DNA of 64,000 nucleotides from Escherichia phage vB_Eco_mar004NP2. The translations under genes were made by a program, and so were the position numbers. Position 1 is the first letter of the stretch, and each line of letters begins with the position of its first letter. Under the pieces are notes generated by a model that saw only the letters and a program-made list of their open reading frames with translations, made no database searches and was not told the DNA's origin. Shown here one piece after another: positions 4,750 through 62,298 of this stretch. The stretch is from the sequence record OR896837.1, one strand, 5' to 3'.

Positions 4750-5178
4750 ATGTTCAATAATGTATTCTCTAAAGAAGCTAACCCAATTTTGGTTAACTTT
4801 TGGCGTACTCTCCCAGCTAGCCTGTATAATGAGGCTATTAACTCTTTGAAAATATGGTGTGAGAATAACGAAATCTCCTTTGCTTTTAAGGATGATATTG
4901 ATGAGGCCCCCTGTATTGGTTTAATTGTGCAGGTAGAGGATGGTCTTGAAGAGATTGTGGGCTGGAAAGAGTTAGACGAAATGGGCTTAGTTTTTGCGTT
5001 AAACTATAAGCTGTTTATGCCTGCTAAGCATCGCCTAGTTGTTAACTATAAAACTAGTGAATCTCCTGGTTTTCAGGTTAATGAACGTTATGGTTGGTCT
5101 TACTCACCGGAAGAAGTGAATGAGGGGATTCAGAAACTTCGCCGTTTCGGGTATATGATCCCAGGTTTAACTGCTTAA
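4750..5178 (+). CDS. Hypothetical protein, paralog A of a tandem pair
   Basis: ORF track; shares a C-terminal block with the next ORF (EL-x-EMGLV-x-LN-x-LF-P...GY-x-IPGL). Confidence 0.55.
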   Translation: MFNNVFSKEANPILVNFWRTLPASLYNEAINSLKIWCENNEISFAFKDDIDEAPCIGLIVQVEDGLEEIVGWKELDEMGLVFALNYKLFMPAKHRLVVNYKTSESPGFQVNERYGWSYSPEEVNEGIQKLRRFGYMIPGLTA

Positions 5179-5187
5179 GGAGGCAGA

Positions 5188-5580
5188 ATGGAACAAGTAT
5201 ATTGGCGTCAGATTGATCCTAGTTTGGTGAAGCGTGCTGAGAAGCTGCTACAACGTTGGTTGGGGGTAAAGCAAGCCTCCTTCACTTTTCCAGAGCAGCA
5301 AATAGATGATCCCTGCACTGGCGTTTTCCTGTCTGGATATGCCGGGGAATGGGAGATGGACTGGAATGAATTGTCCTCTATGGGTTTAATTGTTTCCCTA
5401 AATTTCTCTTTGTTCCATCCACGTGGTTTTGCCATATGTCGTGTGCCTGATGACGGTTGTTCGCCCCATCTTTTACAGGTGAAAGATGATATTTGGGAGT
5501 ACACTCCAGATATTCTCAAAGAAGCTAAAGAACAATTAAACCGTGTTGGGATTTATGTTCCAGGCCTAAATGATGAATGA
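5188..5580 (+). CDS. Hypothetical protein, paralog B of a tandem pair
   Basis: ORF track; strong SD taaggagg; paralogous to 4750-5178. Confidence 0.55.
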   Translation: MEQVYWRQIDPSLVKRAEKLLQRWLGVKQASFTFPEQQIDDPCTGVFLSGYAGEWEMDWNELSSMGLIVSLNFSLFHPRGFAICRVPDDGCSPHLLQVKDDIWEYTPDILKEAKEQLNRVGIYVPGLNDE

Positions 5581-5671
5581 TTTTTACTAGCTGAACTCTG
5601 ATTACCGAGTCATTTTGGCTCGGTTTTCTCTGTACTCAAAGACACTGATAGCACCTTTGGGAAAAATTTAC

Positions 5672-5700
5672 TTGCACGGTGCTCAAAATCTTGATATAAT
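5672..5700 (+). promoter_or_regulatory. sigma70-type promoter reading into a ~0.45 kb region without a convincing ORF
   Basis: TTGCAC 5672-5677, 17-nt spacer, TATAAT 5695-5700, followed by the conserved leader-like atttatattgaattgagaga. Confidence 0.45.
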
Positions 5701-6199
5701 ATTTATATTGAATTGAGAGACATTAGTAAAAATTGATTTTGCTAATTTTTCTTGTTTACAATCCGCGATACGGAACAGTTAGGCTGCCCCATTAAGGGTT
5801 GTTTTAACTGTTACGTGTTAGTTTTTAAACAAATAGTTAATAGAATACTTAGCGATCTGCGTCCCGTAGGAACCCTGGTAAGGCCTCGAAGCAACCTAGA
5901 TAGAGGTGGTTGTGAAGTGAGACGGGAGGAGTGAAAAACTCCGAGACGTGATTCTGTAAGTTATATTGCATCTAGTATGAGCTAGTATATGAAGCATTAG
6001 GTGAGCAAATCTGGCTTAGCGGCCATCCTCAAGGATTTGTGCGGTATAGCAAAGCAGCAGCGCAGCGTGAAAGTGGAAGTTGCCACCCCACTTCAGTATT
6101 TGCGATTAATTTGTTGAGAAATTGACAGTAACAGTTGTTCTATTCTTTCTGAATAGTCCTAAAGAAAACTTATTTCATTTCCAACACAGGAGTATTGTT

Positions 6200-8989
6200 G
6201 TGTTTTCAATCCTACAAGGTCATGCAGGATTTCATCGCGATTTAGCCACAGGCAATTGGCGAGAAGTTAAAGCAGAAGATTATCTTTTTGCTAAAAGATT
6301 TTCCTCAAAGCATCCTGAAGGTAAACCAGCTTCAATGCCCTTCAAGTTTGATGTAATTGACGAAGTTGATCCTCAAACCCTAGTAGAAATGCTTCCTCTT
6401 ATGAGACGTTTAACGTCTGACCCTCATATCGTTGCGGTACGAGGTCGATGTCTTGCACCTAAAAATAATGTGCGGCGTAAGAATGGCAACTTTAATGTAT
6501 CTAACCCAAGTCATATAATTGCAATGGATGTGGATGGTATTGTAGATACAGGTGGTTGTAACAAGTTTGATCTTGTTGGCATGGCTCGACATATTATTAG
6601 AATGTTAAATAGTATTAGTGAGGATATGTTTCCTCTTGATGCAGGGTTTATCGCTCATGCATCGTCTTCGGCTGGGCTAAAACCAGGTATCCGAATGCAC
6701 TTAATACTAGAATCTAATGTTAAAGTAACTCAGGGTCAAATCAAATTCTTATTTACATCTATCAACGAAAGTAGTAGACAAAAGTATGGCTTTGATATTG
6801 CCGACTTAGCTTATTACTCTTCCGTACAGCTCCATTATTTTGCAGATCCGTTATTTACCGATGGTATAGTAGATCCGTTTAAAGAGGAGGGTGCTTCACG
6901 TCTGGTATTTGTTAAGGGTTCTAAAGTAAATTTACCCAATAATCTGGTTGACTATGAAACAACTAGAGGTGAGTTTAAAGAAGAGTTCTACTCTTTACTA
7001 GACCAAATTAAGGGTAAAAAAGCTGCCTCTGATAAAGTAGAAGAAACCATCAGCGAACTAGAAGAAGCTGAGGATGGAGTGTATCTACGTATTATTCCTA
7101 AACTCTATCACAGGGCTTTAGAGGATGGTGTTGATTTTGCATGGCTAGAAAAAGAAATCCGTCCAGCCTTATCAGAATATATTGCAACTAAAGATAATAG
7201 TCGTAATATTCAAGACTACTTTAATAATGGTCGTAAACAGGCTCTAAAAGCATTTGTTAATAATTCTAAACGTTATATACCGGATGTTTTAAAAGGTATT
7301 CCACTCAAAAAGCTAGAAACTAACTCTTTAGAGACTGATAACTTCTTGAAATTAAATACTGTGCCACCAGAAGGTTATATGACTTTTGTAAAAGCGAGTC
7401 TAGGTACAGGTAAAACTACAGCGGTTGTGCGTTGGTTAGATTCAGGAGTTATTAAAGGTAATTTCTTAGCAATTACCAATACTCGAGCACTGGTATCTTC
7501 CAATGCTAAGAAATTTAGTGCAGGACAATATGATAAGTCTGTAGATATGCTTAATTTTAAGCGTGGTGCTATTGACCGTATGTCCACAACTATTCACTCT
7601 TTGCATAAGTTCAAGAGTTTTATTGGTCAAATTGATGCAATCTTTATCGATGAATGTGATGCAGTAATGAACGACCTATTATTCGCCCCGGTTGTTAAAC
7701 AACGTCGTGAATGTATTCAGGTTCTTCGGGATATTCTTGCAACTGCAAAAATCATTATATTATCAGATGGTGATATTAGTGCAGAAACAATTGAAGCATA
7801 TGGTTCTTTGATCGAGTTTGATAAACCGGTTGCATTTTATAATCATCACCGTAAAATGCTGTCAAAAGCTCATGCTTATGAGTTTCCTGATGAATCCAGT
7901 ATTTGGGTTGCACTTCAGACTTCTCTAGAGATGGGTGAGAAATCTATTCTGGTATCTGATTGTGGCCCTGATGAGCTGAATGAGAAGGGTATGGCATTAC
8001 GTCGTAATACGGGTGCGTTAGTTAAGGAAATCCACTCAAATTCTACGTCTGATGTGGATATTAGACGTATTCTGGATTACACAACTAATGAGCTGATTGA
8101 TCAACAAATTGATTGCTTATTATGTAGTCCATCCGTAACGAGTGGAGTTGACTTCAACTATTTTGATAACGTATTCGTTATTACTAGAACCAGTAACCAA
8201 GCGCCAAACATGCGTTTTCAAGCAATCAGGCGCGACCGTGGTGCTCAGAATATCTATTATTTTATTGATAAATCTACGAGTGGATTCTCTGCAGGTTCTG
8301 AACAATATAATATTGATGAGGGCTGGCTGGAGTTAGCACAGCAATTATATGCACGTCGTAGAGAGCTGGAATCTAGAAATTATACTAGTACTTTACGTTA
8401 TTACTTGCTTGATCAGGGTGCAACTATTGATATTTTCAGCGAAAGCTGGGGAACTATTGAAGGTGCAGGGAAAGAATATATGGAAGAGCGAATCAAAGCT
8501 ATTCTACATTCAACTCCTGATTATTGTGCTCCACGTCATGCGGATGCGTATGAAGCTAAACTACTTCTTGTTCGCTATTATCATCTTGAGTCTATTAAAG
8601 ATGTAACAGTTGAGCATGTTGAACAATATATCAAGGATAAACCTAATGATCGAGCGGCATTCTTCCATAAAATGCACGAGATGTTTTGGGAAGATATTAA
8701 GAAGTGTTCAAACGTCACTATCAAACCATTCATAGAAGCTCTGAAAGGTAAGAAGAAGGACTTCTTCCTTAAAACAGGTCAGAGTGCTAACCCAAAATAT
8801 GCTAGAATGTATCTTGGTATGATGGGTATTGGTAAGGATATGAACACTGAAAATATTGTAGACTGGTACAGAACCTATTGTAAAATCGAGTGTATGCCAA
8901 TTCCTTATAAGTTTATGACTGATGAGGAGAAACATATGCATGATGAAGCAATGGCAGAGCTAGGTGCTAGAAATGACAGTGAAGAATAA
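6200..8989 (+). CDS. Large SF2 helicase-like protein (possibly replication-origin-binding / primase-helicase-like)
   Basis: ORF track 6122-8989 (TTG); start placed at GTG 6200 after aggag with 7-nt spacing (uncertain); Walker A SLGTGKTT, Walker B FIDECD; N-terminal IIAMDVDG acidic motif. Confidence 0.65.
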   Translation: MFSILQGHAGFHRDLATGNWREVKAEDYLFAKRFSSKHPEGKPASMPFKFDVIDEVDPQTLVEMLPLMRRLTSDPHIVAVRGRCLAPKNNVRRKNGNFNVSNPSHIIAMDVDGIVDTGGCNKFDLVGMARHIIRMLNSISEDMFPLDAGFIAHASSSAGLKPGIRMHLILESNVKVTQGQIKFLFTSINESSRQKYGFDIADLAYYSSVQLHYFADPLFTDGIVDPFKEEGASRLVFVKGSKVNLPNNLVDYETTRGEFKEEFYSLLDQIKGKKAASDKVEETISELEEAEDGVYLRIIPKLYHRALEDGVDFAWLEKEIRPALSEYIATKDNSRNIQDYFNNGRKQALKAFVNNSKRYIPDVLKGIPLKKLETNSLETDNFLKLNTVPPEGYMTFVKASLGTGKTTAVVRWLDSGVIKGNFLAITNTRALVSSNAKKFSAGQYDKSVDMLNFKRGAIDRMSTTIHSLHKFKSFIGQIDAIFIDECDAVMNDLLFAPVVKQRRECIQVLRDILATAKIIILSDGDISAETIEAYGSLIEFDKPVAFYNHHRKMLSKAHAYEFPDESSIWVALQTSLEMGEKSILVSDCGPDELNEKGMALRRNTGALVKEIHSNSTSDVDIRRILDYTTNELIDQQIDCLLCSPSVTSGVDFNYFDNVFVITRTSNQAPNMRFQAIRRDRGAQNIYYFIDKSTSGFSAGSEQYNIDEGWLELAQQLYARRRELESRNYTSTLRYYLLDQGATIDIFSESWGTIEGAGKEYMEERIKAILHSTPDYCAPRHADAYEAKLLLVRYYHLESIKDVTVEHVEQYIKDKPNDRAAFFHKMHEMFWEDIKKCSNVTIKPFIEALKGKKKDFFLKTGQSANPKYARMYLGMMGIGKDMNTENIVDWYRTYCKIECMPIPYKFMTDEEKHMHDEAMAELGARNDSEE

Positions 8990-9214: not shown

Positions 9215-9243
9215 TTGCATAGTGCAAAAAATTTCTGTATAAT
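9215..9243 (+). promoter_or_regulatory. Strong T5-type (PN25-like) sigma70 promoter
   Basis: TTGCAT 9215-9220, 17-nt spacer, TATAAT 9238-9243, AT-rich upstream block, leader tagattcataaatttgagagaggag closely resembling the classic T5 PN25 promoter (from memory). Confidence 0.6.
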
Positions 9244-10256: not shown

Positions 10257-10285
10257 TTGCTTAATCCTATAATTCTTGATATAAT
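10257..10285 (+). promoter_or_regulatory. sigma70-type early promoter
   Basis: TTGCTT 10257-10262, 17-nt spacer, TATAAT 10280-10285. Confidence 0.45.
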
Positions 10286-55327: not shown

Positions 55328-55494
55328 TTAGTATAAAACAAAAAGACATCCAAGTAAACTAAATTTTTTATTTCTTGGATGGTATATTGGCAGAAACCAC
55401 TATGTAAGAAAAGTAGAAGTCCTTCTAGGAGTCCACAAGCACGGTTGGTTATGCACATATTTTAAAATATCACATTTATGGGAGCACGAAAGAT

Positions 55495-55623
55495 ATGTCA
55501 AACAAAAGAAATAATAGACGCGGAGAGGTGTATGAGAGTTGGATAAATAGTTTTGGGTTCGGAACTCTCCTATTCTTTATTTTCGTAGGTTTTTGGTTAG
55601 CAGCTATGGCGGGGTGGATTTAA
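55495..55623 (+). CDS. Small membrane protein (42 aa), first of four overlapping tiny genes
   Basis: Own translation MSNKRNNRRGEVYESWINSFGFGTLLFFIFVGFWLAAMAGWI; ggag 10 nt upstream; below ORF-track size cut-off. Confidence 0.3.
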   Translation: MSNKRNNRRGEVYESWINSFGFGTLLFFIFVGFWLAAMAGWI

Positions 55624-55730
55624 TGGAATGGGTAATTATTGCACTATTAGGGATTGTGATTATTGGGCAATGTATTTTAGATAATCACTTAGCTAGAATT
55701 GAAACTTTATTGCTGGAGAAACGTAAATGA
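55623..55730 (+). CDS. Small membrane protein (35 aa)
   Basis: Own translation MEWVIIALLGIVIIGQCILDNHLARIETLLLEKRK; TAATG overlap with upstream stop. Confidence 0.25.
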   Translation: MEWVIIALLGIVIIGQCILDNHLARIETLLLEKRK

Positions 55731-55921
55731 TGGAAGTGGCAGCTACATTAATAGTAATATTAATCTGGGCAATTTTCATTGTTTCTTATACCGCGTATGT
55801 TCGCCTAAAAACTCTAGAGGCCCAGGTAAAGCAGCAACAATTTGCACTAGAAAAATTAGTAGAGCTTCAACGCTGTGATAGTACCCGTATTCTGCAAATT
55901 GAGAGGGAATTAGATGTTTAG
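55727..55921 (+). CDS. Small single-pass membrane protein (64 aa)
   Basis: ORF track; N-terminal TM helix then coiled-coil-like tail; ATGA overlap with upstream gene. Confidence 0.45.
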   Translation: MMEVAATLIVILIWAIFIVSYTAYVRLKTLEAQVKQQQFALEKLVELQRCDSTRILQIERELDV

Positions 55922-57946: not shown

Positions 57947-59611
57947 TTACGCAAAGAATTTACCGTTTTTAAAGTCAATCAAAGTGCGCTGACCGTTTGC
58001 ATAGGTAATTAAATGCGTTTGCGTCCAGCTTGACGCGCCAACGTTGTAACCCATGTCCAGACTACCAGCTACGCCAGCGGTATACACGCCGCCATAAATG
58101 CTGGCGGTGTGAGTGTGTCCGGTGTTTAATTTGCCCAATTTCTTAAATTGTTTAGGATTGCCACGGCTGCCGTTAATGCCGTTGTGACCGTGTACGCCGC
58201 ATTCAATGCCTACAATCTTGAAAGATTGGTCAGTAGTTAGAAAAATGGCGTTAAACTCACAACCTGCAACCTTGCGCAGCGCATAATCTAGCACGTTGAA
58301 AGTATCGTCTTTTTCTGCAATAGCTCCATAAATCGCGGCATTTAGGCGGTGATATAGTTCCGCGTTTGCTGGATCGTCTTTAATGTTAGCATTACGATCA
58401 TCAAGCCAACGGGATAGCGCCAAATCGTGATTAGATTCAACAATGATTGTTTGCGAGAAATCACGTTCCATTGATTCCAGCACGCGCCCCGTATCGATAA
58501 GATCATCTAATACCTTATCACGTCCGGCGGCGTATTGTTTTGCTAGGAATACACCGGATGCGCGGTTGTGATGGTTGCGTGATGTAAAATCATGCACGTC
58601 ATGGATAAACTGATATTTAGGCTTGAGAATATCAAGCAAGCTATTTTCGCCAGCCCATGACGCAACGGCACAATCATCATCTAGTTTTTCTGCGTGAATA
58701 TCGCCGTATTGCAAGCCTAAAACATGCCCCGATGTCTCATAGCATCCGGCAGGAGTAGCGCACACATTCAGATCATAAAATACCCCGCTTTCGTCCATCG
58801 TTTCGAGCTGGCGTACAAAAAATTCCCCGTCCTCGTCGAACTCGACAATTAGCGCACCGAAGTTATGCAGCGCCTCGGCCTTTTGTCCTGCTTTCTGCTG
58901 AATGTAGTTTTTGAGCGTTGCCGTTCCGGTTGAGTACATACGGCGCACTACTTCACCTTTTAAAGCTGGCACGCTTTCAGCGGTAATTTTAGCGTGACCA
59001 ATTGCCAGACCTTCCAGATTAAGCGCCGTTGCAGTTTCAGCGAATCCAGAAAGCGGATAATCTGCGGTTGGCAAAACGTTAATTTCAGCCATGAAAGCAA
59101 AACGGCGGTTATTTAAAAACACGTTTTTATTGCAGATATATTTGTCAAATGCGGAATCATATTTTATTCCTTCTGCACCCTCGCCATTTTGAAAACCGTT
59201 TTTGTTATAAATAAACTTGCTAACCAGCAAATCAGCGCCGATATATTTAGCAAATTGCTCCAATGAGGCTAAAAAGTTTTTATGCGGGAAAGTATTATTC
59301 TGAATCGACGTAATAATAAAGCGTTTACCCTGCTTTACTTCCCATTGCTCAACCGTGCTAGAAACAATCCCCGCCGCTTCTGGACGCTCATCGTTTTTAA
59401 TGGCTTTTGCTACTTTCGCCGCTTTCGGTTTAGCTGGTTTATTTGCTTCCAACCAGTCGCAGATAGCGGTCGAGTGTTTTGTTGTATCGTAGACCGCTTT
59501 TGATATATCGTCGCAGACCTCCAGTTTAGTAGCGCGCAGACGTTTACCATAGAAATTAAAGTCAGCGGCCATTTTCAGGATAACGGTTTGTTTTTCTGTG
59601 GAAATAATCAT
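57947..59611 (-). CDS. A1: A1-like pre-early protein (metallophosphoesterase-type nuclease-like)
   Basis: 554 aa; calcineurin-like motifs GDIHAEKLDD, VESNHD, GHTHTA; size close to T5 A1 from memory. Confidence 0.7.
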   Translation of the reverse strand: MIISTEKQTVILKMAADFNFYGKRLRATKLEVCDDISKAVYDTTKHSTAICDWLEANKPAKPKAAKVAKAIKNDERPEAAGIVSSTVEQWEVKQGKRFIITSIQNNTFPHKNFLASLEQFAKYIGADLLVSKFIYNKNGFQNGEGAEGIKYDSAFDKYICNKNVFLNNRRFAFMAEINVLPTADYPLSGFAETATALNLEGLAIGHAKITAESVPALKGEVVRRMYSTGTATLKNYIQQKAGQKAEALHNFGALIVEFDEDGEFFVRQLETMDESGVFYDLNVCATPAGCYETSGHVLGLQYGDIHAEKLDDDCAVASWAGENSLLDILKPKYQFIHDVHDFTSRNHHNRASGVFLAKQYAAGRDKVLDDLIDTGRVLESMERDFSQTIIVESNHDLALSRWLDDRNANIKDDPANAELYHRLNAAIYGAIAEKDDTFNVLDYALRKVAGCEFNAIFLTTDQSFKIVGIECGVHGHNGINGSRGNPKQFKKLGKLNTGHTHTASIYGGVYTAGVAGSLDMGYNVGASSWTQTHLITYANGQRTLIDFKNGKFFA

Positions 59612-60718: not shown

Positions 60719-60754
60719 AGTATAAACTCCAAGTTATTTAGGGGATTGTTCCGC

Positions 60755-60781
60755 ATTACCTGCTAGAAAGTAGCAGGTAAT
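60755..60781. repeat. Perfect 11-bp-arm palindrome with 5-nt centre
   Basis: attacctgcta-gaaag-tagcaggtaat, about 35 nt upstream of the 60718 start codon. Confidence 0.8.
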
Positions 60782-60917
60782 AAGCAACAATCCGCTCACC
60801 GCTATAATCAATTTAAGGAACTCCACGCAGGCTGCTATATCCCAGTTAGGGGGCAGGATGATTTATGGGGAATCACCTAACCGTCAAATTGTATCAAGTT
60901 ATCGCTCTCATCGAACT

Positions 60918-61206
60918 GGGTACATCTTAAAGCCTATCGGCTAGGGTGTCAAACTGTTTTTTGCAGTTTTTTATGATTTTCTTTCAGGTCGATCATAATA
61001 TTACGCCAGATCATTTCTAAACCCTGCTGGCGGCCTTTCTTGTACTGAGCAAATCGGTATTTTACGGATTGCTGGGCTATTGTCAACAATTTTTTAGTAG
61101 TACCATCTAATTTTTTAGCTGGTTTACCAGTGATCAATAAAGTTTGTTTCATATCTGCGATTCCTTATAATATAAGTTTACCGCCGATAGACTTTAAGAT
61201 GTACCC
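60918..61206. repeat. 24-bp inverted repeat pair (23/24 match) bracketing a small basic-protein gene
   Basis: gggtacatcttaaagcctatcggc (60918-60941) versus reverse complement of gccgatagactttaagatgtaccc (61183-61206). Confidence 0.85.
60949..61152 (-). CDS. Small basic protein (67 aa, Lys-rich)
   Basis: ORF track; 16 Lys/Arg versus 4 Asp/Glu by my count; SD aagga 9 nt upstream; enclosed by the inverted repeats. Confidence 0.45.
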   Translation of the reverse strand: MKQTLLITGKPAKKLDGTTKKLLTIAQQSVKYRFAQYKKGRQQGLEMIWRNIMIDLKENHKKLQKTV

Positions 61207-61575
61207 AATTTTTAAAGAGCGCGGCGGTAAACTTCCCGCCGTGTAGTTCGTCATTGCCGCCCTACGAGATAAATAATAGCAAATAGTAAAAATGGCGCAA
61301 CCTTATTTTTGTAAAGAAACGTAAAGACAAAATGCCACCGGACACCGTGCGGCGACCTGGGCGCGGCGCACTAAAATTAAAGGAAACGGGCGCGCGAATA
61401 CCATAAAACCCAGCAGGTTGGCAAGTAATTTTTTCATTTATATTTGCCTTGCCCTACTTGACAAAAACTAAAAAGCTCGTGGTAGCGATAAACGAGGGTA
61501 GGCAATGCAATGGCATGGCTAAAAACTTCATCGCGTTATAGGGCGTTTTAGGCGCATTCTAGCCTTGTTGATAAC

Positions 61576-62017
61576 TTATCCCCAAAAGCAAAAATGAAAT
61601 TTTCCTAGTTATCCACTTGACTTTTATTTTCCAGTGGATAACTACTTATTTTATGAAATAAATTAATTGACTTTTATTTGTTAGTATGCATCGGAAAGAT
61701 AGCAGACTAATAGTTGCTAGGATGATAATCATGCTGGTGGATTGTAATAGCCGGAACTGTTAGCAGACTATTAATCACGGAAAATCTCATTAGCCAACTA
61801 ACTATTTCATGATATATAATATACTTATAAATTAATGAGAAATAATAATTATAAGAAATCGTAACCGATAGAAATAATAACTATAAGAAACTATCGTCCT
61901 AAGTGAGAACCACTATCGTTTAAGTTATCCACAAGTTTATTAACAGCACAAAATGATTTGACACGATAGGCGACGATATAAGGACTTATCCACAGACTTA
62001 TCCACATGTTATCCTAC
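61576..62017. promoter_or_regulatory. DnaA-box cluster in a 1.1-kb non-coding region (origin / injection-stop-like region)
   Basis: TTATCCACA-type boxes at 61609-61617 (+), 61633-61641 (-, palindromic pair with 15-bp spacer), 61925-61933, 61986-61994, 61998-62006, plus weaker 61576-61584 and 62009-62017. Confidence 0.6.
61839..61890. repeat. Two 20-bp direct repeats (iteron-like)
   Basis: gaaataataattataagaaa (61839-61858) and gaaataataactataagaaa (61871-61890), 19/20 identical. Confidence 0.8.
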
Positions 62018-62298
62018 TGTATAAATATACAGGGTAAAAAGGTAGTGTTAACAACTGCAATCAATTTTAGGCGGCCTAAAACGCTTTCTAACGAGCTAAA
62101 TGCGGTGGGGTAATATTAAAGTGAAGCCTTCACCCGTCGCCCTGGTGGCTTCACCGTGTTTTGCTCTTTACTGTACCGCTGCGCGGTTAGCATAAAACTA
62201 GGCGCTAGGCAAGGAAAATAAAAAGGTAAAATAATATTTGCCTATGCTAGAAAATTGCCTTTATCATTCACTCACCGATTAACGAGGGAGGCCAACAA

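Follow-up and report, generated by a model that had tools for sequence, protein, structure and literature searches.

A window of 64,000 nucleotides (nt) from Escherichia phage vB_Eco_mar004NP2 (OR896837.1) was analyzed, in which positions 5707-6199, directly before the gene for a 929-amino-acid (aa) 'replication origin binding protein' (OBP), encode a structured RNA of ~430 nt whose fold is kept by compensatory change across the Demerecviridae. The stretch is very probably a conserved, structured, non-coding RNA of the + strand, to which all the feature coordinates below refer. From 5' to 3', the element is built of a hairpin P0, a conserved motif 1, the 5' arm of a long-range helix P2, a core domain, the 3' arm of P2, a hairpin P10, and a hairpin holding the Shine-Dalgarno (SD) sequence and the start codon, while motif 1 pairs with a loop of the core as a pseudoknot. 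A non-coding RNA or long regulatory leader, as suggested in the initial annotation, agrees with the lack of an open reading frame (ORF), the promoter present in all lineages, the missing terminator and a + strand structure backed by covariation. The mention of several short hairpins in that annotation was an underestimate, as they belong to one architecture of ~430 nt, in which a core of ~250 nt, a long-range helix of 39 bp and a pseudoknot are combined.

The window is that of a T5-like phage, and the stretch is 100% identical to Salmonella phage vB_SalS-SIA3lw and ~97% identical to many Tequintavirus genomes. About 490 nt without a conserved ORF lie between an early promoter and the OBP start codon GTG at 6200. 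Conservation in relatives had been named as a check in the initial annotation; a homologous gap was found retained in 529 phage records by nucleotide match of the query region, and the same architecture, formed from unrelated helix sequences, was obtained in at least eight Demerecviridae lineages when each was folded separately. Klebsiella Sugarlandvirus, Pectobacterium phage My1 and Providencia phage PSTCR5 each have ~0.6 kb of non-coding sequence before OBP, and the element was also found in Pectobacterium phage DU_PP_V, in Erwinia phage KEY and a related metagenome contig, and in Proteus phage Stubb. In the window, the + strand RNA folds at z = -3.8 relative to 100 dinucleotide shuffles, and the - strand at z = -2.3.

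Covariation was examined in the core domain (5850-6094). Thirteen cores of one type (type A, described below) from six lineages were aligned and folded with RNAalifold, the Providencia, Proteus and Vibrio cores being kept outside this alignment. The consensus contains 57 pairs in 12 helices, 40 of which (pairs) show compensatory double changes, as compared with 17.7 +/- 2.7 in column shuffles, none of 500 reaching 40, and 8-17 in controls with slid partners. Paired cells amount to 92.5%, against 78.1 +/- 0.9% in the shuffles and 38-49% with slid partners; the first figure is inflated because the alignment also supplied the structure, but this circularity does not account for the difference from the slid controls. 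Compensatory substitutions thus exceed the controls, as in a conserved structured RNA. The consensus helices are P3 (5857-5862/6060-6065), P4 (5863-5867/5922-5926), P5 (5891-5896/5908-5913), P6 (5928-5942), P7 (5960-5967/6043-6050), P7b (5969-5976/5996-6003), P8 (6005-6012/6032-6040) and P9 (6071-6093), with the junction GAGACGUGAUU at 5943-5953 following P6. The hairpin aagtgg...ccactt, placed at 6066-6088 in the initial annotation, is real and corresponds to P9, its true position being 6071-6076/6088-6093, about 5 nt further 3'. P9 reads AAGUGG/CCACUU in the window, AUAUGA/UCAUAU in T5 and GAGG/CCUC in the Sugarland-like locus Kpn. Likewise, P3 is CUGCGU/GCGCAG in the window, CUGUGU/GCACAG in T5, CUACAU/GUGUAG in locus L009 and CUAGAA/UUCUAG in Kpn, and P4 changes from CCCGU/ACGGG to CCCAU/AUGGG in phage Gostya9. 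An alignment of the second core type (type B) with Providencia by MAFFT and RNAalifold was poor, and no claim is drawn from it.

The core is enclosed by P2, in which 5805-5849 pairs with 6095-6137 through 39 bp, including 7 G.U pairs, at -33 kcal/mol. Ten lineage representatives form P2 from unrelated sequences, with 22-46 bp, 3-11 G.U pairs and a span of 318-352 nt. When the 3' arm was shuffled with dinucleotides preserved, the duplex scored z = -4.3 to -7.3 in 7 of 9 lineages, the window at -5.4. The outer 10 bp contain a series of G-C in the window, G.U in T5 and A-U in Eps7, and nearly all variable P2 pairs within each core type are exchanges of G.U with A-U or of G.U with G-C. The enclosed core is of nearly constant size, with 248 nt in the window, T5 and Eps7, 252 nt in Providencia, and 244-256 nt throughout the type A lineages.

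Two motifs link the 5' domain to the core. Motif 1, GAUACGGAACAGUUAGGCUGCCCCAU (5767-5792), lies outside P2, is near-invariant in alignments across genera and occurs once in the window; within it, GGCUGC-CCA supplies the 5' strand of the pseudoknot. Motif 2, GGCUUAGCGGCC (6013-6024; universal form GCUUAGCGGC), occupies the P8 loop and is the 3' partner, with one exact copy in the window and its CUUAGCGG present in 8 of 8 lineages, Proteus and Providencia included. When the 5' region (nt 41-135) was searched for the best partner of motif 2, motif 1 was found in 9 of 12 sequences, the differences compensating: GGCUGC..CCA with UGG..GCGGCC in the window, GGCCG..GCAC with GUGC..CGGCU in locus L067, GGCCGC..CAC with GUG..GCGGC in KEY, and GCUGCUA with UAGCGGC in Kpn. 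Since motif 2 sits inside P2, P3 and P7, this pairing is a pseudoknot, which would clamp the 5' domain onto the core. A competing local fold of motif 2 is a 4-bp mini-hairpin with a UAGC loop, which covaries as GGCU/GGCC, GACU/GGUC and GCCU/GGGU. Three other ideas on these segments were dropped. Pairing of motif 1 with the base of P2 as a switch, through the inverted repeat 5770-5781/5805-5816, is confined to the T5 group; as the repeat is missing in DU_PP_V and My1, it is not a conserved switch. Complementarity of P6 to the first OBP codons was judged to be chance, and a likeness of motifs 1 and 2 to the P4 and 3' region of RNase P (ACAGAAC..GGCU, GGCUUAUCGGUC) has no Rfam score in its support.

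Transcription of the element is predicted from a T5 early-class sigma-70 promoter at 5661-5700, composed of an A-tract (5661-5669), a -35 box TTGCAC (5672-5677), a spacer of 17 nt, a -10 box TATAAT (5695-5700) and the discriminator ATTTAT. The promoter TTGCAC-17-TATAAT reported in the initial annotation is present, while its description as consensus was too strong: the -35 box agrees with TTGACA at only 3 of 6 positions, for which reason a generic sigma-70 scan skips the site. The site instead combines the features of the T5 early class, namely a TTGC -35 box, the 17-nt spacer, TATAAT, an A-rich tract at -43, the discriminator and a GAGAG leader motif. Ten sites in the window match TTGC-N19-TATAAT exactly, all sharing an A-rich upstream tract and a TATAAT-ATT discriminator; with at most one mismatch the number is 24, as against 11.0 +/- 3.2 expected, and none of 100 shuffles reached 24. 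An ATATT discriminator is a signature of T5 early promoters (Klimuk et al., PMC7472727), and T5 carries an annotated promoter at the homologous site. The A-rich tract, the TATAATATT discriminator and a leader motif TTGAGAGA at +9 are common to this promoter and the homolog of P_N25 at 9215. The shared leader motif pointed out in the initial annotation indeed recurs at 9215 and at a promoter at 2678, in both cases as the SD of the gene that follows immediately; at the 5672-5700 promoter no start codon follows. Transcription is predicted to start at the A at 5707, 7 nt past the -10 box, by a spacing rule. In 60 of 60 loci (52 distinct sequences), a TTG(C/A)-N18-20-TA(T/G)AAT promoter was found 0.5-0.8 kb upstream of the OBP start, and the terminator scan gave no intrinsic terminator between the promoter and OBP in the window (5700-6200). 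Judged from these signals, a T5 early-class promoter drives transcription through 5707-6199 and on into OBP. The site at 9215-9243 is the homolog of the classic T5 promoter P_N25 (TTGCAT-17-TATAAT, leader AAATTTGAGAGAGGAG), and a P_N26-like site lies at 10257.

The 5' end of the predicted transcript is folded into P0 (5715-5753), a hairpin of 16 bp (GAGAGACAUUAGUAAAA/UUUUGCUAAUUUUUCUU) in the minimum free energy (MFE) fold, in which the SD-like GAGAGA leader motif is sequestered. A hairpin of 16-21 bp and differing sequence is at this position in 7 of 8 folded lineages, mostly no more than ~10 nt from the predicted start, while the 5' hairpin of Proteus phage Stubb (L046) is of another, compound form. 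An optional insertion of 88-98 nt was observed directly 3' of P0 (Gostya9, locus L010, at ~1140-1240; also L022, L036 and L045), the equivalent point in the window being ~5753. It is flanked by an 8-nt direct repeat TTTTTCTT and was found in 51 phage records of both core types, in a single copy each, which marks it as a leader indel module rather than a multicopy mobile element.

Within Tequintavirus and Epseptimavirus the core occurs in two types, type A in the window, Gostya9, Kenya-K16 and others, and type B in T5, AKFV33, Shivani, Eps7 and others. Between the window and T5, identity is 84-100% in the flanks and 100% at 5700-5799, falls to 33-59% at 5800-6099, and is 63-96% in the N-terminal half and 92-100% in the C-terminal part of OBP, so that divergence between these phages is greatest in the core and in the N-terminal half of OBP. 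Both types are nevertheless variants of one family, because a covariance model made from type A alone (the 3' subdomain with P8, motif 2 and P9) recovered the homologous place in T5 and Eps7 with 22 and 17 bits (E = 0.02-0.23 in 784 kb), and found nothing else in the window or in 78 unrelated pattern loci. Those loci came from an IMG/VR scan with the pattern CTTAGCGG-N45-75-GTTGCCA, which proved too unspecific, its matches beyond known T5-like contigs being apparently chance; model R1 found nothing better than E = 0.77 among them. Core type and OBP N-terminal allele were associated in 47 of 47 loci, including Shivani and L039, which carry a 62-nt linker of the other type. This association fits co-adaptation and also simple linkage.

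Vibrio T5-like phages also have a promoter followed by an ORF-poor leader of 0.6-1.1 kb before OBP, in which the + strand folds better and conserved ends surround a swapped middle. These leaders (L014 1186-1872, L054 1276-1925, L053 830-1935), putative counterparts of the enterobacterial element, have a common motif GUGACUAACC, and no Rfam match was obtained in four Vibrio loci. A 56-aa gp73 is annotated inside a leader of this type in phage River4.

OBP (6200-8989), the homolog of T5.108, was assigned by Pfam, PHROG and structure matches. It carries the Pfam domain Herpes_ori_bp at residues 394-533, belongs to PHROG 3712 and has the herpesvirus UL9 proteins as its nearest solved relatives. 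Judged from size and domain position, OBP is probably the 'D2' bipolar helicase of T5 studied by Wong et al. 2013 (PMC3632103). Residues 1-390 matched nothing in Pfam, in phmmer against the Protein Data Bank (PDB) or in a PDB profile search, and a search of 5.8 billion proteins with the N-terminal ~390 aa (6200-7369) returned two partial matches only. IIAMDVDG and GIRMH motifs in this half resemble the DxD and sxH of archaeo-eukaryotic primases.

Between P2 and OBP lie two small hairpins. P10 (CUAUUC-UUUCU-GAAUAG, 6140-6156), seen in the MFE fold, adjoins the 3' arm of P2, has no U-run after it and is absent from the list of the terminator scan. An equivalent of 5-7 bp and differing sequence was read from most lineages, is ambiguous in My1, and appears in only some of the MFE folds. 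The initiation region forms a second hairpin (AACACAG/UUGUGUU, 6183-6204) around the SD AGGAG (6188-6192) and the GUG start at 6200, of the general form AACA(N)...(N)UGUU. The SD is at the boundary of stem and loop, its AG paired and its GAG in the loop, and the start codon is in the stem. OBP starts are often non-AUG, GUG here and UUG in KEY, and the base opposite the first base of the start codon follows the codon in several lineages, with C:G for GUG, U:A for AUG (Kpn), A:U for UUG (L067, KEY) and U.G in Eps7.

No known class of RNA accounts for the element. The initial annotation had recognized no tRNA cloverleaf, and ARAGORN likewise found no tRNA or tmRNA gene in the whole window; the covariance-model scan it had suggested for tRNA, group I intron and riboswitch was run, and no class matched in the window or in eight homologous loci. 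With Rfam 15, the window gave no match at gathering thresholds, the region 5550-6260 gave only snoRNA-type noise of at most 16 bits at E up to 10, and the eight homologous loci gave no consistent match. In 5,426 E. coli genomes, blastn (E up to 10) found nothing matching the leader either, which argues against sequence-level mimicry of a host RNA, and no description of it was found in the searchable literature. An intrinsic-terminator attenuator does not fit, as there is no terminator in the leader, and a riboswitch is unlikely, because the distance from the fold to the SD ranges from ~45 to ~290 nt across lineages and the core sequence is unconserved between close relatives. The arrangement recalls a retron msr-msd, in which a promoter and a structured RNA closed by inverted repeats likewise precede a gene for a nucleic-acid enzyme. 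However, no reverse transcriptase is adjacent, the downstream protein matching only Herpes_ori_bp and PHROG 3712, and the UAGC motif is placed away from the closing stem, in the loop of an internal hairpin. The conserved UUAGCG resembles the region around the branching G of retron Ec86, a lead and not a test. In size and complexity, with more than 10 helices and a pseudoknot, the element is similar to GOLLD, ROOL, HEARO, OLE and raiA, which are also phage-borne, were found by conservation and had no known function when first described; unlike these, it is matched by no Rfam model and is strictly syntenic with one gene, in whose 5' leader it lies.

A duplex of ~20 bp suffices for cleavage by E. 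coli RNase III, known examples being the stalks of rRNA and the leaders of T7 and lambda. P2, with 39 bp in the window and 22-46 bp elsewhere, reaches this length of near-continuous double-stranded RNA. We tentatively favor, while holding it short of an even chance, a model in which the element is a cis-acting leader of the initiator mRNA that is processed by RNase III and sets the dosage of the initiator. The strong early promoter would produce a transcript with its 5' end protected by P0, and the leader would fold co-transcriptionally into a compact body locked by the pseudoknot. Host RNase III would then cleave P2, detaching the core and leaving an OBP mRNA that starts at P10, and the weak start codon, located in a small hairpin, would limit translation of OBP to a low, fixed level. 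Processing of P2 and this weak, partly occluded start could together restrain production of the initiator even though the promoter is very strong. The core would be a probable platform for protein binding, with the N-terminal half of OBP as the best candidate partner, because the core and that half are the most diverged parts relative to T5 and are perfectly co-inherited; such binding would allow feedback on initiator dosage.

Known systems resemble this model in part. The stems cut by RNase III in rRNA stalks, T7 early mRNA, lambda N and pnp leaders are likewise long-range or local duplexes of at least 20 bp in a primary transcript, formed by the flanks of a folded RNA, and processed leaders likewise stand upstream of a gene whose expression depends on processing, cleavage here being predicted. 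Unlike those stems, P2 encloses a new fold of ~250 nt and not rRNA, the known phage sites being simple hairpins of ~60 nt. The T4 gene 32 pseudoknot and gene 43 operator are also RNA structures in the mRNA leaders of replication proteins, used there for autogenous control of dosage; they have only 30-40 nt, unlike the ~430-nt element, and binding of OBP is suggested here from co-divergence only. Overall, the element would work most like an RNase III-processed structured leader, is placed like an origin transcript, and belongs to no defined family.

Several findings weigh against a processed, dosage-setting leader. Cleavage by RNase III is predicted from helix length alone, P2 is weak in two lineages (Kpn and L067, z ~ -1), and a fold of at least 12 helices with a pseudoknot is far more elaborate than the known leaders under RNase III control. 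The predicted occlusion of the SD and start is modest and varies by lineage, and physical linkage may be all that lies behind the association of the core with OBP. In Providencia and Proteus the element is 110-250 nt further from the start codon. Furthermore, Proteus phages have a consensus promoter TTGACA-18-TATAAT ~35 nt before the OBP SD, so that expression of OBP there need not pass through the leader. In the Proteus phages Stubb and PM135 (L046 and L047), the last ~290 nt before OBP contain an extra structured segment, and GCCUUAG(N)CGG occurs there three times, once within a partially duplicated P8 module.

Among the alternatives, it is unlikely that the element is an origin-associated RNA, marking the primary origin or forming part of it, with a transcript that activates it, forms an R-loop, primes DNA synthesis, or is where the OBP helicase is loaded. 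The exchangeable core would then be a determinant of origin specificity matched to the N-terminal domain of OBP, by analogy with ColE1 RNA II, the T4 oriF/oriG transcripts and herpesvirus oriLyt RNAs. The element is directly upstream of the only gene for a UL9-like origin-binding helicase, and its T5 counterpart, at 59.0-59.5 kb of 121.75 kb, is at 48.5% of the genome; Davison (bioRxiv 10.1101/866236), citing electron microscopy of the 1970s, places the T5 origins near the center of the molecule. The core and the N-terminal half of OBP diverge together as a module, like ori and initiator of lambdoid phages, the Vibrio relatives have the same mosaic pattern, the second promoter in Proteus uncouples the RNA from OBP expression, and the RNA is G-rich, with a GC skew of +0.26 to +0.5 over 5850-6000. 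ColE1 RNA II and the oriF/oriG transcripts are likewise promoter-driven, untranslated, folded, several hundred nt long and tied to replication initiation; the likeness of the present element to them is one of location, beside the initiator gene in the origin-bearing part of the genome. However, the microscopic mapping is coarse and the whole cluster of replication genes lies near the center. A repeat search revealed no clear iterons, only short two-copy repeats and apparently recurring CUUAG-type motifs, and no classical AT-rich unwinding element beyond the AT-rich arms of P2. The scans gave no promoter-like site on the - strand within 5700-6200 and no antisense partner like RNA I, as a ColE1-type origin would have, and the transcript, unlike those origin transcripts, continues into a protein gene. 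Finally, G.U pairs, + strand bias and the pseudoknot are constraints on RNA folding rather than on duplex DNA, and a simple R-loop primer has no need of them.

Improbable to a similar degree is a free-standing, trans-acting RNA, in which RNase III would release the core as a ~300-nt scaffold of a ribonucleoprotein (RNP), a ribozyme, a decoy or an anti-defence RNA, its place before OBP merely borrowing a strong early promoter. The long-range stem resembles the processing stalks of rRNA, the core has a constant size, its loops and junctions are conserved along with the pseudoknot, and both the variable distance to the start codon and the separate OBP promoter in Proteus phages would be in keeping with independence from OBP. 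Against it stands the strict synteny with OBP in every lineage examined, distant Vibrio phages included, which a function unrelated to OBP would not require. In addition, the core is swapped wholesale between close relatives at the low identity given above, which is unusual for a ribozyme or an RNA with a conserved host target, and it has neither similarity to host sequences nor a second copy in the window.

A bolder proposal, to be regarded as distinctly doubtful, is that the RNA is integral to replication initiation in the T5 family, the core forming an RNP with the N-terminal half of OBP/D2 that directs or primes firing at its own locus. If an RNA-initiator relationship of this kind were true, the swappable cores would be modules of origin/initiator specificity (incompatibility); an RNA-dependent initiator is undescribed for any phage, and such a module would be categorically new.

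It is highly improbable that the inverted repeats act only as single-stranded or cruciform DNA, for example as hairpins for entry of primase or helicase, and that the RNA is irrelevant. With DNA energy parameters both strands beat their shuffles (z = -3.9 and -3.2), so that energy alone cannot rule out single-stranded DNA, and the adjoining gene encodes a helicase whose N-terminus may be primase-like. However, the arms of P2 are only 79% complementary as DNA, because 3-11 pairs per lineage are G.U, and only for the + strand do substitutions keep pairs of the G.U, A-U or G-C kind. Folding favors this strand throughout, its MFE being 13-50 kcal/mol below that of the - strand in 14 of 14 folded sequences, and the P2 duplex is always much stronger on this strand. 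Transcription of the + strand is indicated by the pattern of G.U substitutions, the fixed promoter and a fold that begins at the 5' end of the transcript, in most lineages at most ~10 nt from where it is predicted to start.

One or more unannotated small protein genes, whether a 60-aa TTG ORF or the 'hypothetical proteins' of GenBank, can practically be dismissed: mechanical ORFs of 30-60 aa do exist in the gap, and some records place two to five proteins there, but no ORF is shared by the core types or lineages. The ORF at 5752-5934, with a TTG start and no SD, had been called the only one in the region; it is present and the longest there, with 60 aa, accompanied by shorter ORFs of 38-40 aa. 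It is judged spurious, being shortened to 50 aa in close relatives, ending after 21 codons in T5 by direct reading of the sequence, and having no match in Pfam. When ORFs of at least 30 aa from 13 representative leaders were compared all against all, none was kept across lineages or between the two core types within a genus, which upholds the earlier view that the stretch has no convincing ORF; the Eps7 leader has no + strand ORF of this size at all. Similarity between lineages was confined to motif 1, which is invariant at all three codon positions, without third-position variation, and is read in frames that differ by lineage (e.g. in DU_PP_V). A 12-nt direct repeat at 5753-5764 and 6201-6212 (TGTTTACAATCC/TGTTTTCAATCC), not conserved beyond the T5 group, makes the start of the spurious TTG ORF mimic the coding start of OBP. 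PP554579, PP735124, MW006478 and other records annotate two to five 'hypothetical proteins' in the gap, some on the minus strand, and these are probably false gene calls; in one GenBank record the genes on either side are named 'tail tube protein' and 'DNA primase C'.

T5 has served as a model for ~70 years; annotation of this gap has been limited to a 'promoter' and empty space, or to spurious hypothetical proteins. A pseudoknotted RNA of ~430 nt and at least 12 helices, family-wide and outside Rfam, would rank among the largest known structured RNAs of a virulent coliphage. With a UL9-like helicase as its neighbor, in a region to which origins were mapped, and with cassette-like cores co-inherited with the N-terminal half of the initiator, it offers a handle on how T5 initiates and doses replication. 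Types A and B are a natural pair of variants for swap experiments, and a new covariance model could serve phage annotation and allow false gene calls to be removed from hundreds of GenBank records.

The gap is flanked upstream by a DUF7415 gene (5188-5580), which is a paralog of the adjacent gene at 4750-5178, with two DUF7415 repeats in each. The upstream operon is closed by an intrinsic terminator at 5604-5631, found by the terminator scan as a stem ACCGAGTC...GGCTCGGT with a T-run, and has annotated counterparts in the equivalent position of T5 and phage Lindwurm. The T5 record (NC_005859) has only three annotations in and around this gap, the terminator at 58952-58976, the promoter at 58999-59073 and T5.108 from 59545. 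In AKFV33, Shivani, bobsandoy and Kenya-K16, a gene for an HNH homing endonuclease is inserted between the upstream gene and the RNA (L003 1016-1468, L004 1016-1468, L007 660-968, L009 1141-1593), equivalent to ~5640-5670 of the window; the insert supplies a different promoter, and the leader is unaltered from GAGAGACATTAG on. Two further stretches of the window are devoid of any ORF of at least 75 aa, 55328-55775 (448 nt) and 60719-62298 (1580 nt), and in the latter both strands fold equally well.

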